From the IMG/VR virus record IMGVR_UViG_3300022821_000550, positions 1-11,118 of that record: 11,118 nucleotides of DNA, one strand, 5' to 3'. The notes below the pieces were generated by a model, which was not told where the DNA came from, did no database searches, and saw nothing but the letters and a program-made list of their open reading frames with translations. Positions 1,450 through 11,118 of the stretch are shown piece after piece. Both the position numbers and the translations under genes were made by a program. This DNA comes from a virus. Every line of letters starts with the position of its first letter. Position 1 is the stretch's first letter.

Positions 1450-3348
1450 TTATACCTCCTTTGTGATGAAATAATCAAACGTTATGTCTGTTGATTCAGC
1501 ACTTGTACTTGTTATTGTAAAACTACCTGCTGCACTTACTACACTCCATGTACCAGCTGGGTCTGAGCCTGTTATACTAACTATAACTAAACTTGCTGCT
1601 GTACAAAATGCATCTGTAAATGTTTGAGCTGTGTCATTGTCTGTAAACGTACTATTACTTTGTTTGAATGATGCGTTACCAGAACCTTTAGCTGTGTTAG
1701 CTGTGATTGCACTAGCTTGTGCTCCACTAATTGTTGTTGGATTATTAATTAAATCACCATAGTCATAGTCCCAATCAAATGATACCTTACCATTGTTAGT
1801 AGATATATTAGATTCCATTGTATCTAAGTTAACTGCTTGAGTAACAGAGATATGTCCTACTTTAGTTGAACTTGTACTATCATAACTAATCTTATCTGTA
1901 TTTAAACCAACTGCTGTGACTAAAGTACTGTGGTCTGCACCAGATGCATCTCCTCTATGAGTTGTATTAAGTCCTATTGCTGTTGTGTTAGTACCTATAC
2001 CAGATATATCTTGGTCTCCTGTGTTAGAACCTGATGTGTCTGCTAGTCTTATTTCTTCTGCTGCAATATCAACACCATCAACTAAGCCTGTTACTGCTAA
2101 GTCACCTGTTACTGTTACTAATGGTGTTGCGCCATCAATAGATATTCTTTTAGTTTCTACTGTACCATCATTAACATAAAAGTCCATGTCACCATCTAAG
2201 AATTTGTTCTTAATGTCAGTGACACCAGAATTATTTTGTAATAATACTAACTTGTTTGCTTCTGTTGCATTAGCCATTACTGCAATGTCAGCATATTGTC
2301 CAGCTGGTGATTCAACGTGGAATCTCATTGATTGTCCTGCTGTCTTACCTGTTAAGTGACAGTGTATATTTGCATCTGATTCATCTATTCCAATGCATGC
2401 TTCATGTGCGGTGTTAGTTGTCTTAAAACATATCCCAGGGTTACTAGCATTAGCTGTCTCTATTTTTAATAGAGCATCATTCTTTGTTATATTAATATCA
2501 CTTGTTACTGGACTACCAAGAGTAGTATCACTACCAGCTGCGTGTAACGCTGCCTTCTCTACGTCTGTAACATAGTTATCATCATCAGTCTTAGCTGGTT
2601 CAAAACCTGTGTGTCCTGCACTAGCATAATCTAAATTTGAAAGTGCTGTGTGGTCAGTTACACCACTTGCTGTTGTGCCATAATATAAACCATCTACTCC
2701 ATTAGTTCTAACATAGTAGTCTGTTGTTCCATATCCACTTGGTGTATCAGTTAAGTCTTCAAATGTTGTTGGTGCTGCTGTACCTTGTATACCTTGTATA
2801 CCAGTGTCACCAGTTATACCTTGGATACCTTGAATACCCTGTTCACCAGTTATACCTTGGATACCTTGAATACCCTGTTCACCAGTTGCTCCAGCTGTAC
2901 CTTGTGGTCCTGGTACTGTACTATCTGCTCCAGTTGCTCCAGTGTCACCAGTTACTCCTATTTCACCTTGCGGTCCAGTGTCACCTGTTACACCAATAAC
3001 TCCTTGCGGTCCAGTGTCACCTGTTACACCAATAACTCCCTGTATACCTTGTATACCCTGTATACCTTGTTCACCAGTATCTCCTTGTGGTCCTGCTGTA
3101 CCTTGTGGACCTTGTATTCCATCTACTCCTGCTGTACCTTGTGGACCTGGTACTCCTGGCATTGAGTCAACATAAGCTTTATTAGTAATATCATTACCTT
3201 GAACTGGAACTTTTTCAATAGTTCCTTCTTGAGTGTTAAGTACTTTCTTAATAGCGTAGTCTTCTGTCTGTTCAATAGACTTACGCCCTTCTTGAAATGT
3301 ATATTTCTTTGTTGGTTGTACTTTAAATATTTTATTTACATTTGTCAT
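1450..3348 (-). CDS. Collagen-like tail fibre protein (632 aa)
   Basis: The ATG at 3348 is preceded by GGAGAGGT. Residues 65-142 form 26 uninterrupted GXY triplets, followed by an STVP break and then 15 more triplets (aa 147-191). The C-terminal 440 aa are Ser/Thr/Asn/Gly/Asp-rich with short internal repeats (IGTNTTAIGLNTTH, VGLNTDKISYDS), as in phage fibres. Collagen repeats in phage fibres are established knowledge. Confidence 0.85.
   Translation of the reverse strand: MTNVNKIFKVQPTKKYTFQEGRKSIEQTEDYAIKKVLNTQEGTIEKVPVQGNDITNKAYVDSMPGVPGPQGTAGVDGIQGPQGTAGPQGDTGEQGIQGIQGIQGVIGVTGDTGPQGVIGVTGDTGPQGEIGVTGDTGATGADSTVPGPQGTAGATGEQGIQGIQGITGEQGIQGIQGITGDTGIQGIQGTAAPTTFEDLTDTPSGYGTTDYYVRTNGVDGLYYGTTASGVTDHTALSNLDYASAGHTGFEPAKTDDDNYVTDVEKAALHAAGSDTTLGSPVTSDINITKNDALLKIETANASNPGICFKTTNTAHEACIGIDESDANIHCHLTGKTAGQSMRFHVESPAGQYADIAVMANATEANKLVLLQNNSGVTDIKNKFLDGDMDFYVNDGTVETKRISIDGATPLVTVTGDLAVTGLVDGVDIAAEEIRLADTSGSNTGDQDISGIGTNTTAIGLNTTHRGDASGADHSTLVTAVGLNTDKISYDSTSSTKVGHISVTQAVNLDTMESNISTNNGKVSFDWDYDYGDLINNPTTISGAQASAITANTAKGSGNASFKQSNSTFTDNDTAQTFTDAFCTAASLVIVSITGSDPAGTWSVVSAAGSFTITSTSAESTDITFDYFITKEV
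2776..3156 (-). repeat. Collagen GXY-coding repeat tract with exact 36-nt tandem duplications
   Basis: This tract encodes aa 65-191 of the fibre. An exact 36-nt unit repeats at 2808-2843 and 2844-2879, with 8 nt of a third copy to 2887 (ITGEQGIQGIQG). A second exact 36-nt unit repeats at 2966-3001 and 3002-3037 (GVIGVTGDTGPQ). Shorter 9-nt ccttgtata-type repeats occur near 2781-2800 and 3040-3070. Confidence 0.9.
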
Positions 3349-8880: not shown

Positions 8881-8882
8881 TT

Positions 8883-10202
8883 TTATTCTACCTCATAATA
8901 TAAGTTTAAACTCTTATCTCTAACACTCCACGCTGCACGGATAATTCCCTCAGCTATATGAGTATATCTACCATGAATTCTTACTTCATTAGTATTTCTG
9001 TTAGTTTCATATATAATAGACTTAAGACTAGCAAAAATATCAGTGTCTTTTAGAAACTGAATCTCTTTACGTTCCATCATTTTAAGTAAATTAATATATA
9101 AGTCTTCTTTTAAAAGCTTTCTTTTTCTGCTTGAGTCAACATCAATAGCCCTTCTTGCGTTATTGATGGCAACTACTTTTCTTTTAGTTTGTTCATGTAT
9201 AAGTAACTGGTCAAAGACTGCTACGCCTAAACCACCATCATCAATATACATCTTTTTGAAATCATACTCTAAATCTAATTCTAATATCTTATCAATTGTA
9301 TCAGTTGTTAACGTGTACTTGTGTACAATATTATCTCTTTGGAGATAATTATCTCCTTTTCTTTGAAATATCTCAAATGTAGTCTCATCACCACCCATTC
9401 TGGCAACGTCTACACCCAAATAATACTCTCCAGCTGGTGTGGAGGAAGAAACCCTCTGGAGAGTTTGGGATGATTCTATAAGCTCATCAGGAAATAGTTG
9501 TCCTAGTTCCTCTAAAAACTGTGCTAAATATTGTTGTGAATATTGAAATTCAGTCATACGTGTCTTCTCACGTGCTAGATGTTGCATCATCATAGCTCTC
9601 TGAGGCTCTGGTCTTTCTTCAGCAACCTGTTCAGAGTTCACATGAAACGTCTTAAAGCCCATACTTGTATCAGTATAAGCTTCATAGAAGTAACCTTGAG
9701 CTGCATTTGGTGTGCTTAATAACCATAGCTTACCACCAGTTGTTAATAACATTGGAGTAATACTTGACCAAATAGCCTCTGGAAGATATGCTGCTTCATC
9801 AGGGATAATAATATCCACTGTCATACCAAGAACTCCAAGACCATATTGACCTACTGCTTTAGTAACAATACTACTACCATTGTTAGTAAATACTTTATGT
9901 TTAGTTGGCTTCTTAAGCCCTTTCATAATATAAGATTTATAATTGTCAAATAAATATAACATAATCTTCTGCAACATTCTCTCTGCTTGGTCTTCTGTTA
10001 CAGAAATAATAAGAACGTGCTTGTTTTTGTTATTAATAATATACTCAGCAGCCTTAATAGCTACTATCTGACTCTTTCCTACCTGTCTACCAGAGCAAAT
10101 GCATAGATTACCCTCTGCTACCAGTACTTCTTTCTGCCATTTGTCCAGAGTGAAGCCATAGTTGGGTTCTTTGCTTGGTTGTTTAGTAGATTTTTTAGTC
10201 AT
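8883..10202 (-). CDS. terL: Terminase large subunit (439 aa)
   Basis: The ATPase domain shows Walker A SGRQVGKS (aa 37-44), Walker B VDIIIPDEAAY and the coupling motif LLSTP. The RNase H-like nuclease domain shows YLGVDVARMGGDETTF and YIDDGGLG. No Shine-Dalgarno sequence precedes the ATG (CACTCAAAAATTATAAAAA-ATG). Confidence 0.9.
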   Translation of the reverse strand: MTKKSTKQPSKEPNYGFTLDKWQKEVLVAEGNLCICSGRQVGKSQIVAIKAAEYIINNKNKHVLIISVTEDQAERMLQKIMLYLFDNYKSYIMKGLKKPTKHKVFTNNGSSIVTKAVGQYGLGVLGMTVDIIIPDEAAYLPEAIWSSITPMLLTTGGKLWLLSTPNAAQGYFYEAYTDTSMGFKTFHVNSEQVAEERPEPQRAMMMQHLAREKTRMTEFQYSQQYLAQFLEELGQLFPDELIESSQTLQRVSSSTPAGEYYLGVDVARMGGDETTFEIFQRKGDNYLQRDNIVHKYTLTTDTIDKILELDLEYDFKKMYIDDGGLGVAVFDQLLIHEQTKRKVVAINNARRAIDVDSSRKRKLLKEDLYINLLKMMERKEIQFLKDTDIFASLKSIIYETNRNTNEVRIHGRYTHIAEGIIRAAWSVRDKSLNLYYEVE

Positions 10203-10306
10203 TTTTTATAATTTTTGAGTGTAAGATGTTACTCATTATACTCTTAACTCTTCAAAAGCGCATCAACGCAGTTGTATTTGTTGTGTTACTACCACCCTAT
10301 CCACCT

Positions 10307-10338
10307 ATTGCATAGCTGGTACAGCCATTGCATAGCTG
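10307..10338. repeat. Two exact 12-nt direct repeats ATTGCATAGCTG spaced 20 bp start to start
   Basis: The copies are at 10307-10318 and 10327-10338, and each is preceded by CC(T). A TTGCAT half-copy recurs at 10376-10381. Confidence 0.85.
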
Positions 10339-10345
10339 TTGAGTA

Positions 10346-10373
10346 TGAGTAACAAGTAAATAAGTGTTACTCA
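10346..10373. repeat. Perfect 9-bp-arm inverted repeat TGAGTAACA / TGTTACTCA with a 10-nt spacer
   Basis: The arms are at 10346-10354 and 10365-10373. The same 9-mer TGTTACTCA also occurs at 10227-10235, giving three copies in total (two direct, one inverted). Confidence 0.85.
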
Positions 10374-10545
10374 GTTTGCATTCCATAAAGGGCATACATA
10401 TGATGTTACCAAGCGTGCAACTTTACTATGTAAAGTTGAATGTTTGTATGCATTTAAATAGTTATGTATTTTATGTGAATGACAAACCATTATCACCATT
10501 AACTTAATATATCTCTTAGTACTCTTATTAGTATGTGTGCGCTTT

Positions 10546-10725
10546 TTACTGCACATTCTCCTCTGACCACTCACCAGTCCATCTGTTCTTGTTCTTATAT
10601 GTGTCAAACTTCTTAGCATAGTTACCAGCTATCTTGTTATTCTTTGTTTGAAAACACTCTCTACAAGTATGACCACAGCAAGGTTCTTGACAAACCCTGC
10701 ATAATCTATCTTTTGGTCTACTCAT
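10546..10725 (-). CDS. Cys-rich zinc-ribbon-like small protein (59 aa), missing from the ORF track
   Basis: Hand translation gives MSRPKDRLCRVCQEPCCGHTCRECFQTKNNKIAGNYAKKFDTYKNKNRWTGEWSEENVQ. It has a CxxC-x3-CC-x-H-x-C-xx-C cluster followed by a basic tail. Its ATG overlaps the end of the upstream ORF (GATGAGTAG), and AGGAGTG lies upstream. Confidence 0.6.
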   Translation of the reverse strand: MSRPKDRLCRVCQEPCCGHTCRECFQTKNNKIAGNYAKKFDTYKNKNRWTGEWSEENVQ

Positions 10726-10864
10726 CTTCTAAGTCACTCCTATCATAGATTGGTATCAAGTTTACATATGTTCCAACTGCTAAGTTAGCGCCTTTTGGAA
10801 TTGTTATCAGTAAATTATCATCTCTATGTTTATTCTTCTGTAATCTTACTCTTGCTATAATCAT
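10718..10864 (-). CDS. AbrB/MazE/SpoVT-like swapped-hairpin DNA-binding protein (48 aa), missing from the ORF track
   Basis: Hand translation gives MIIARVRLQKNKHRDDNLLITIPKGANLAVGTYVNLIPIYDRSDLEDE. The ITIPK...VG..V.L pattern resembles the AbrB-type looped-hinge-helix fold. AGGAGGT lies 8 nt upstream of the ATG. The gene shares an ATGA start/stop overlap with the upstream micro-ORF. Confidence 0.55.
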   Translation of the reverse strand: MIIARVRLQKNKHRDDNLLITIPKGANLAVGTYVNLIPIYDRSDLEDE

Positions 10865-10956
10865 TTGTTCTTACCTCCTATCATTAATATAATCTCATCT
10901 AGTTTGTCACAAGTTCTTTGTATCTTCTTCTCCAACTCTATTAATTCTGCTTTCAT
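10861..10956 (-). CDS. Micro-ORF, 31 aa helical peptide (alternative in-frame ATG at 10980 gives 39 aa)
   Basis: Hand translation gives MKAELIELEKKIQRTCDKLDEIILMIGGKNK. GAGGAATAAA lies upstream of the ATG. Its TGA overlaps the ATG of the AbrB-like ORF. The ORF is short, so the coding status is uncertain. Confidence 0.4.
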   Translation of the reverse strand: MKAELIELEKKIQRTCDKLDEIILMIGGKNK

Positions 10957-11036
10957 TTTATTCCTCTTACTAGCTTCCATACTGTGCTTACAATATATAA
11001 TATAAGTGCTGTGTTTATTAATACTTCATTCATCAT
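10953..11036 (-). CDS. Possible 27-aa hydrophobic micro-protein spanning the circular junction
   Basis: Hand translation gives MMNEVLINTALILYIVSTVWKLVRGIK. The ATG follows the nuclease TAA by 1 nt, with GGGGT upstream. The TGA overlaps the ATG at 10956 in an ATGA arrangement. This ORF is mutually exclusive with the 39-aa extension of the next ORF. It is very short, so this is speculative. Confidence 0.25.
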   Translation of the reverse strand: MMNEVLINTALILYIVSTVWKLVRGIK

Positions 11037-11118
11037 CTTAGTTACCCCACATTAGTGTGACTGGTATCATATCCATTGGTGATACCACATAGTCTTGACG
11101 TGTTCCACGCTTAACTAT
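10992..11118. repeat. Right copy of the exact 127-nt terminal duplication (circular-closure overlap or direct terminal repeat)
   Basis: Identical to 1..127. It contains the 3' end of the nuclease gene and the start of the 27-aa micro-ORF, so the coding sequence continues across the junction. Confidence 0.95.
11038..11118 (-). CDS. 3' fragment of the PD-(D/E)XK nuclease gene (duplicate of 47..127 within the terminal overlap)
   Basis: It lies inside the exact 127-nt duplication. It is the same gene as 47..523 seen a second time, not an independent locus. Confidence 0.8.
   Translation of the reverse strand: MVKRGTRQDYVVSPMDMIPVTLMWGN

Follow-up and report, generated by a model that had tools for sequence, protein, structure and literature searches.

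Hairpin origins, start-site operators and repeat-bearing pac sites are known kinds of cis-acting DNA. Here, they are compared with a non-coding region of 343 nucleotides (nt) that lies directly upstream of terL, the gene for the large terminase subunit, in the virus record IMGVR_UViG_3300022821_000550. The whole stretch analysed comprises 11,118 nt and is referred to as the window (WIN), and the loci of related viruses are labelled L001-L103. At the core of the region lies a predicted promoter, named P1, whose TATA box stands at a fixed distance from the tip of a long inverted repeat that mirrors the promoter. For this arrangement no match was found in Rfam, in a phage collection or in the literature. 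The conserved P1 core is new, and any explanation of the region must account for it.

Long, imperfect and orientation-specific palindromes with promoter-like elements in the stem are known from the single-strand origins (sso) of rolling-circle plasmids and from the minus-strand origin of M13/fd. There, initiation by host RNA polymerase at one particular hairpin position has been proposed, and structure is conserved over sequence. These origins are of the bacterial sigma-70 type and go along with an HUH Rep protein and a separate double-strand origin, whereas the present locus belongs to a tailed double-stranded DNA virus with a TATA-box promoter, a start predicted at the tip and no Rep found in the window. 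At ColE1 RNA II, T4 oriF/ori(uvsY) and the T7 primary origin, a promoter is followed by a non-coding element, the host or phage polymerase makes a primer or an R-loop and the site works without an initiator protein of its own. However, they have neither a start-centred perfect palindrome nor an inverted repeat mirroring the promoter, and an R-loop is a proposal for the locus described here. The common region of geminiviruses and the hairpin origin of archaeal pleolipoviruses (Rep-Arvir, PMC13107129) combine a TATA box, lineage-specific direct and inverted iterons and a conserved hairpin in one intergenic region, and the iteron sequence changes between close relatives. Their hairpins differ in carrying a conserved loop sequence that is nicked by an HUH or Rep_trans enzyme; the hairpin found here has a 3-nt spacer (mostly RTA/TAY) and the sole candidate enzyme is a PD-(D/E)XK-like nuclease.

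Archaeal start-site operators (TrmB/TGM, Phr, LrpA) are likewise palindromes just past the TATA box that overlap the start. They have a fixed length and a half-site consensus, whereas the arms observed here have no sequence in common from relative to relative, are 7-14 bp long and are continued by an imperfect stem of ~50 nt on each side. Phage pac and cos sites (lambda cosN-cosB, SPP1 pac, P1 pac) adjoin the terminase genes and have a symmetric core with short flanking repeats, but they are not coupled to a TATA box at a fixed distance, and no small terminase subunit (TerS) was found here. The packaging RNA (pRNA) of phi29 is of similar size (~175 nt) and linked to packaging genes. It differs from the present locus, which has no Rfam match, no stable or conserved fold and a terL that is not a gp16-type ATPase; a protein-primed polymerase is missing, as neither PolB nor a terminal protein was found in Pfam and PHROG scans of the window proteins.

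The predicted P1 promoter and its perfect palindrome

The strongest feature of the region, which the original prediction did not mention, is a perfect palindrome of 21 bp together with the long inverted repeat that surrounds it (Table 1). Counting 22 nt from the TATA box of P1 leads into the spacer of the palindrome and thus the predicted start of transcription (about 10429) coincides with the palindrome centre. About 100 relative loci were fetched for comparison. The terL gene has 1,486 homologues at E <= 1e-20, many of them on contigs of 10-12 kb, and the family occurs in lakes, sediments, groundwater and oceans. A published description of this virus family was not found in the literature.

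Throughout the family, copies of the motif ACATAC(A/C)TTTAAAT are present on the coding strand. Its distance to the next ATG was determined for 230 pairs of a motif and an open reading frame (ORF) of at least 40 aa. The distance was 22-24 nt in 84 of these pairs, while the other distances were mostly represented by 1-8 pairs (17 at 18 nt). On the opposite strand, no peak of motif-to-ATG distances was observed. Internal genes of the family carry GGAGG-type sites. A spacing of 22-24 nt is characteristic of archaeal TATA-box promoters whose first genes are leaderless and not of a bacterial -10 element. The distance of about 22-30 nt to the start that is typical of archaeal TATA boxes was found in this indirect way, via the ATG distances, and the promoter geometry argues for archaeal hosts. 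A scan for sigma-70 promoters performed no better than on shuffled sequences (7 compared with 5.4), and the plus-strand 'terminator' from that scan was simply the palindrome.

The P1 layout was seen with unrelated arm sequences in the 22 relatives inspected, for example as CTTTTCTAGTA-GTA-TACTAGAAAAG, TAAATTTCAC-ATA-GTGAAATTTA, GGCAGGCCATCCCT-CAG-AGGGATGGCCTGCC and TTGGTAAACAGC-ATA-GCTGTTTACCAA. A survey of 526 kb yielded 44 unique perfect palindromes with arms of at least 8 bp and a 3-nt spacer. TATA hexamers starting 27-31 nt before the spacer were counted 32 times on the coding strand, with a peak at 28-30 nt, and only twice in the other orientation. Among 21 genomes, all four Watson-Crick pair types occurred at each of pairs 1-8, so that the pairing is kept and the sequence is not, although the perfection of pairs 1-7 is partly due to the selection criterion. 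The pairs were counted with a centre-anchored script; MAFFT with RNAalifold gave 0 pairs since the TATA boxes were aligned and the palindrome register was broken. The arms vary in length among the relatives (7 to 14 bp), and the centre is fixed. In a relaxed scan, 31 of 45 non-redundant loci had the P1 element, the most distant of them with a terL identity of 43%. Among the 17 loci whose terL is at least 62% identical and whose upstream sequence is long enough, 16 had it.

Pairing extends beyond the perfect arms. The plus-strand hairpin of the window comprises 43 Watson-Crick and 6 G-U pairs. When the whole region was folded as RNA, z was -5.05 for the plus strand and -2.59 for the minus (coding) strand, and the central 141 nt folded as DNA gave z = -2.9. 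In the 50-nt flanks of 21 relatives, 623 complementary positions were counted, compared with a mean of 486 and a maximum of 554 in 200 shuffles. With its long imperfect palindrome, constant orientation to the genes and structure conserved over sequence, the element resembles an sso.

Repeats, island and terL-proximal module

The region had been described as devoid of a credible ORF, which was borne out. The longest frame, with 82 aa (10371-10619, minus strand), overlaps the upstream gene and was rejected as coding because a stop breaks it in the relative L003; its lack of stops in the window merely reflects the conserved sequence of promoter and palindrome that the frame crosses. A conserved protein-coding frame across the region was not detected in the relatives. 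The genome is not otherwise gap-free as had been stated, given a second non-coding stretch of ~354 nt at 539-892. The non-coding stretch upstream of terL is kept in relatives, with 357 nt in L003, 733 in L004, 433 in L089 and 606 in L096 (343 in the window). In blastn searches of the gap among relatives, L003 matched with 88% over 82 nt and L007 with 76% over 58 nt, both matches covering the block of promoter and palindrome. A further match to L079 was marginal (29 nt, E = 0.001). A blastn search of the region against 50,697 phage records gave no match.

The repeats that had attracted attention to the region were all found again. The exact 9-mer TGTTACTCA occurs at 10227-10235 and 10365-10373 and inverted at 10346-10354; the copies at 10365 and 10346 together make up an inverted repeat with perfect arms of 9 bp. 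The looser copies are TGTTAC cores, and the exact 12-mers ATTGCATAGCTG start 20 nt apart at 10307 and 10327. Three of the four copies of the 9-mer in the 11.1-kb window fall inside the 343 nt, as do five of the 19 TGTTAC hexamers in 3% of the window. Shared 8-mers and 9-mers exceeded dinucleotide shuffles with P about 0.01-0.02, a real and moderate enrichment. TTGCA/TGCAA was observed four times in the window with 0.49 expected, five times in L003 (0.32 expected) and five times in L089 (0.49 expected). A further pair, TGCGCTTTT/AAAAGCGCA, brackets the region and is paired in the plus-strand fold.

Conservation of these repeats does not extend even to the nearest relatives. Neither the 9-mers nor the 12-mers occur in L002 and L003 (terL identity 83% and 76%), where different repeats (ACTGCAAC/GTTGCAGT and CAACTG/CAGTTG) occupy the corresponding place, and the inverted repeat at 10346-10373 is not conserved in L003, L002 and L007. 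Repeats are lineage-specific: TTGCA is shared by the window, L003 and L089, AGTAACA by the window and L021, and GTATACTAGTATAC forms arrays in L028 and L029. AGTAACA was rejected as a family-wide motif as it is repeated only in the window and L021. Of the proposed binding-site array, the non-coding, cis-acting character stood, whereas the specific repeats did not. Judged by their sequence, the lineage-varying arrays look like protein-binding sites such as iterons, operators or pac repeats. An iteron-type origin with at least three regularly spaced direct repeats, an AT-rich element and an initiator gene was not found in the region: only the two 12-mers are regularly spaced, the 9-mers are irregular and of mixed orientation, the GC content (33-39%) is the same as in the genome and no initiator was recognised.

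In every relative, P1 is followed by 107-480 nt without a conserved ORF, referred to as the island. In distant relatives (L042, L044, L061, L074, L078, L085, L086) it is GC-rich, with 50-70% compared with 36-42% in the genome, and carries C/G strings. The GC-rich block of the distant relatives (350-420 nt after the P1 elements) contains repeats such as CTCGCTCTGCTCGCT; at its end, the island has GTTTG-type repeats and then CCAGCCCCCGnGGCAAATT. In appearance, the G-strings recall the origin recognition boxes of archaea. The island of L001, a relative with 50% identity, contains a tRNA-like element (395-600) with an acceptor stem and a GGTTCGAATCC T-arm. It scored 25.7 bits with the Rfam tRNA model (threshold 29), was not called by ARAGORN, had a fold z of -4.8 and is flanked by two hairpin copies GTCCCCA...GAAGGGGACTTCATA. 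In L021 (9463-9950), the gene order differs: P1 and the island are followed first by the Zn-ribbon gene and then by the M1 motif described below. The cassette can thus shift its place among the small genes, with its orientation and its location upstream of terL unchanged.

Towards terL, the motif M1 stands at a fixed distance of 42-44 nt before the A-rich motif M2 (CAAAAA(A)TT) in 15 or more relatives. The stretch that separates the two motifs is variable and usually includes an AT-rich box, which is TATAAT in the window. M1-like ends also occur in distant relatives. M1 itself was rejected as a TATA box, since L013, L014, L018 and L024 have TCGGATTT(G/T/A) at this place, which is mostly not TATA-like; from its sequence, it is probably a separate upstream or boundary element. 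The TATAAT 33-38 nt before the ATG of terL (at 10202) had been noted. It is plausibly a real TATA box, belonging to a promoter here named P2, but of archaeal type and about 30 nt before a predicted start just ahead of the terL ATG. Counting 22 nt downstream of TATAAT leads to the end of M2, and L012 has a small leaderless ORF whose start falls exactly at this point. The conserved content of the region, kept in relatives down to 43% terL identity, consists of the P1 hairpin-promoter, the island and the M1-TATA-M2 module.

Table 1. Coordinates of features in the window, in the numbering of the 11,118-nt stretch.
Feature	Position	Strand	Remark
Whole non-coding region	10203-10545	minus	Between Zn-ribbon gene and terL; homologous gap in relatives
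P1 promoter motif ATACATAACTATTTAAAT	10452-10469	minus	TATA box TTTAAAT at 10458-10452
Perfect palindrome CAACTTTAC-ATA-GTAAAGTTG (9+3+9)	10418-10438		Centre exactly 22 nt past P1 TATA box
Predicted P1 transcription start	10427-10429	minus	Palindrome spacer; predicted from geometry like that of the family's leaderless genes
Imperfect inverted repeat, ~114 nt	10374-10487	plus	Perfect palindrome at tip; includes promoter; folds better on plus (template) strand
9-bp inverted repeat TGAGTAACA / TGTTACTCA	10346-10373		10-nt spacer; abuts long inverted repeat
Third 9-mer copy	10227-10235	plus	On coding strand between P2 TATA box and CAAAAATT
Two ATTGCATAGCTG repeats	10307-10338	plus	Contain TTGCA core
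Looser 9-mer copy, TGTTAC core	10284-10289	plus	
Looser 9-mer copy, TGTTAC core	10404-10409	plus	Inside left arm of long inverted repeat
TGCGCTTTT	10538-10546		Perfect 9-nt inverted partner of AAAAGCGCA (10254-10262, inside M1)
M1 GCGCTTTTGAAG	10250-10261	minus	Consensus GCGnATTT(AAA); downstream boundary of non-coding island
TATAAT, P2 TATA box of terL promoter	10235-10240	minus	Probably archaeal-type; AT-rich boxes at same place in most close relatives
M2 CAAAAATT, conserved, A-rich	10210-10217	minus	Just before predicted P2 start; terL ATG 7 nt later
terL, large terminase subunit	8883-10202	minus	Pfam Terminase_6N PF03237 5.9e-11, PHROG 2 5.9e-35
59-aa four-cysteine (Zn-ribbon-like) protein	10546-10725	minus	CxxC...CxxC; candidate trans factor
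48-aa protein	10718-10864	minus	Homologues in L003, L004, L007, L008, L020; candidate trans factor
31-aa ORF	10860-10955	minus	First in coding order; coiled-coil-like, MKAELIELEKKIQ...
158-aa protein	47-523	minus	Candidate enzyme acting on hairpin; conserved in WIN, L003, L004, L089, L096
Second non-coding gap	539-892	minus	~354 nt; before 158-aa nuclease-like gene

Possible functions of the region

The region is a prime candidate for the replication, packaging and timing signals of minimal tailed viruses of ~11 kb. With a probability of roughly 40%, we infer that the 343-nt gap is a cis-acting origin and control module in which transcription by the host polymerase from the hairpin promoter starts or primes replication. 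P1, as an archaeal-type promoter, would start transcription (about 10429) in the palindrome spacer, at the tip of the hairpin-forming repeat. The island (about 10428 to 10262) would be transcribed and non-coding, holding the lineage-specific TGAGTAACA and ATTGCATAGCTG repeats with their TTGCA cores. From P2 (M1 GCGCTTTT, TATAAT and CAAAAATT), the mRNA of terL and the structural genes would start a few nt before the ATG. No polymerase, helicase, primase or Rep was recognised among the 12 window proteins scanned with Pfam, PHROGs and NCBIfam, and the genome must therefore recruit host enzymes via DNA signals. P1 and the island would serve as the replication origin or priming site, where TBP and TFB would occupy the TATA box and host RNA polymerase would start at the hairpin tip. 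The repeats may bind small viral DNA-binding proteins and/or the conserved PD-(D/E)XK nuclease, and transcription from P1 might also feed into or regulate the late operon. An origin role is favoured because the element is unique per genome, widespread in the family and conserved as structure and not as sequence, because the pairing reaches far past an operator, because an island with iteron-like repeats is otherwise unexplained and because the genome is without replication genes. Hairpin origins in archaeal viruses have precedent (PMC13107129).

Two modes of priming may be considered. Transcription could start on duplex DNA and lead to an R-loop or primer, as at ColE1 or T4 oriF. Alternatively, it could use the folded template strand, in analogy to M13 and the sso of rolling-circle plasmids. 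The explicit form of the second mode, in which the template strand folds into a hairpin of ~115 nt that rebuilds the TATA-box promoter, and host TBP, TFB and RNA polymerase prime the complementary strand at the tip, is improbable. If it were true, an 11-kb virus without replication genes could copy itself, and the PD-(D/E)XK nuclease would possibly make the initiating or resolving cut. Priming by the archaeal transcription machinery at a hairpin would represent an origin mechanism new among archaeal viruses. Apart from its function, the P1 layout is a handle for mapping starts and origins, for predicting hosts and for recognising the control region of the family in metagenomes.

Several points weigh against an origin at this place. 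The palindrome looks exactly like an archaeal repressor site in being centred on the start site. No HUH or Rep_trans-type initiator was found, which leaves a rolling-circle scheme without its usual enzyme. The TATA box is only partly paired in the hairpin of the window. The transition mismatches do favour the template (non-coding) strand, on which they are G-T in 76 cases compared with 23 on the coding strand, but the template-strand share of 0.77 exceeds the composition null of 0.66 modestly (p = 0.02, reached in 0 of 200 shuffles); as base composition alone predicts 66%, this asymmetry is only suggestive. The island is not rich in AT, and the GC-rich islands of the distant relatives are unusual for an unwinding element and would rather be expected of an RNA gene. 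The gap at 539-892 could equally hold the origin. The archaeal host is drawn from the promoter geometry and host assignment is otherwise weak: relatives were found in two bins of metagenome-assembled genomes that conflict with each other, one assigned to an 'uncultured archaeon' and one to 'Saccharibacteria'.

A rather doubtful but serious competitor is a pure transcriptional switch. P1 and P2 would be late promoters and the palindrome the operator of a dimeric repressor, either the AbrB-like or the Zn-ribbon protein, while the 9-mers and 12-mers would be further operator or activator sites timing terL and the structural genes, without a role in replication or packaging. A start-site palindrome near the TATA box is the classic position of archaeal repressor sites (TrmB/TGM, Phr, LrpA), and P1 has its start-centred palindrome at a fixed distance from the TATA box. 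One copy of the 9-mer lies between the P2 TATA box and the P2 start, small genes of DNA-binding type lie directly upstream, and lineage-specific repeats would fit co-evolving pairs of regulator and operator, as in heteroimmune phages. However, the arms share no half-site consensus across relatives whose small proteins are clearly homologous, and the half-site is not reused at other promoters. It was found seven times in the window with five expected, and the only exact matches were the two arms. Perfect pairing over 7 to 14 bp suggests selection for pairing and not a fixed protein footprint, and the pairing continues for about 50 nt on each side, beyond any operator. L089 keeps the hairpin and the TTGCA repeats without the 48-aa (AbrB-like) and 59-aa (Zn-ribbon) genes in its early region. 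The untranslated stretch of 107-480 nt past P1 would be unnecessary for a switch.

It is unlikely that P1 serves as the promoter of a functional non-coding RNA of ~175 nt (10429 to about 10254) that ends at GCGCUUUU of M1 and acts, for example, as a regulator or as a cofactor of packaging or replication. Such a gene would have its own promoter and a conserved 3' boundary motif that ends in a short T run, but the T runs are only 3-4 nt long. The islands of distant relatives, GC-rich in an AT-rich genome, include strong folds (z -4.6 in L021 and -5.0 in L089), and the tRNA-like element of L001 also lies in the island. Against this, strong folding appears on both strands, as DNA palindromes would give, and the sense transcript of the window is not unusually stable compared with shuffles (z -0.32 for 167 nt and -1.23 for 227 nt). 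An Rfam 15 scan of the whole window gave no match in 10203-10545, and a scan of 15 relatives gave nothing relevant apart from the sub-threshold tRNA-like match in L001. Beyond the block of promoter and palindrome, the transcript shares neither sequence nor alignable structure even with the 76% relative. Moreover, the inverted repeat includes the promoter, which an RNA would exclude. The earlier suggestion of an RNA analogous to phi29 pRNA is therefore unsupported; there is no Rfam match, the fold of the transcript is ordinary and the ATPase is an ordinary terL.

A pac or cos site is distinctly unlikely. The repeats would bind a protein similar to the small terminase subunit, and the large subunit would cut at or near the palindrome for headful packaging. 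The usual place of such sites is upstream of terL, as for lambda cosN/cosB, SPP1 pac and P1 pac, and the region lies directly upstream of terL with a two-fold symmetric site, flanking direct and inverted repeats and small genes of DNA-binding type in the position of terS. Contig break points among relatives are scattered, even across three assemblies of one virus, so that the maps are circular or permuted; the circular assemblies and scattered break points would fit permuted DNA packaged by the headful. Yet no TerS was recognised in Pfam, PHROG and NCBIfam scans, with only small unclassified proteins upstream, the fixed 22-nt coupling to a TATA box has no role in packaging, and in distant relatives 0.7-1.4 kb of DNA with other genes separate the element from terL. 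The operator, RNA and pac explanations are not mutually exclusive with a promoter function.

Chance repeats in an ordinary spacer with a terL promoter only are hardly credible and already contradicted by the comparative data: although the repeat enrichment in the window alone reached only P about 0.01-0.03 and the listed repeats are not conserved, the P1 hairpin layout was seen in 31 of 45 loci and its changes are fully compensatory, the pairing of the flanks lies above all 200 shuffles and the spacing of M1 and M2 is fixed in 15 or more relatives.

Genome organisation and candidate trans factors

The ends of the window carry an exact overlap of 127 nt (1-127 equals 10992-11118), and it is thus a complete circular map of 10,991 bp. 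The overlap is uninformative on physical termini, as 127 is a common k-mer size of assemblers. Weak Rfam 'S-element' matches at 43-109 and 11034-11100 are one sequence counted twice due to this overlap. All credible genes in the ORF lists lie on the minus strand, which makes the GC-skew profile uninformative. In coding order, the 31-aa ORF, the 48-aa protein, the 59-aa four-cysteine protein, the 343-nt gap and terL are followed by two small proteins, portal, a 535-aa protein, three small proteins and a cement/decoration protein, and then by an HK97-type capsid protein, a collagen-like fibre, a 184-aa protein, the second gap of ~354 nt and a 158/163-aa protein (523/538-47). Besides terL, portal, capsid and cement were backed by Pfam and PHROGs. 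The terL product is of Terminase_6N type with a weak match to an RNaseH-like nuclease.

The 59-aa protein gave no match to a hidden Markov model (HMM); its homologues adjoin the island in L003, L004, L007, L013, L018, L021 and L024. The label 'AbrB-like' that the original prediction had given to the 48-aa protein found no HMM support. The 31-aa ORF overlaps the start of the 48-aa gene by ATGA, and in L003 and L007 a comparable segment is fused N-terminally to the 48-aa homologue to give proteins of 67 aa.

The 158-aa protein is the only sizeable non-structural protein of the window. Searches with HMMs against PDB sequences, Pfam and NCBIfam gave nothing. The residues E41, D71 and D80-x-K82 are invariant in the window and the close relatives examined. 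An AlphaFold2 model built with a five-sequence alignment had a predicted local distance difference test score (pLDDT) of 87.6, compared with 38 for a single-sequence run. The best Foldseek match of the model was the D212 nuclease of the fusellovirus SSV1 (2w8m; probability 0.96, template modelling (TM) score only 0.38), followed by Cas4 SSO0001, the N-terminal domain of Eco15I and lambda exonuclease, with TM-scores as low as 0.3-0.38. Based on the model, the protein is probably a PD-(D/E)XK nuclease.

Following the 184-aa gene, ~130 nt of the gap at 539-892 are richer in GC and include an imperfect hairpin GACGTGTCTC/GAGACGTC. A promoter-like ACATAAGTATATAAAC and then two further TATA-like boxes precede the 158-aa gene. 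The gene after terL (122 aa) has a TATA-like GTTTAAAC (TTTAAAC) 23 nt before its ATG (window 8881-8925, minus strand), and relatives have ACATACATTTAAAT at the homologous spot, followed by 22 nt and then ATG. By its sequence, 8881-8925 is a putative internal leaderless promoter embedded in the 3' end of the terL coding sequence.

ARAGORN called no tRNA in the window or in L001 and two tRNAs in L061. Between L002 and L003, the 180 nt upstream of terL and the first ~600 nt of the gene are 95-98% identical, compared with 70-75% in the remaining terL. This drop points to a recombination break inside terL, so that the control region travels with the 5' part of the gene. The fibre gene (632 aa; 1450-3348, minus strand) contains long collagen-like G-x-x repeats (GIQGIQG, GVTGDTGPQG; window 2615-3300), which lead to very high counts of direct repeats and to a local GC peak of 48%.

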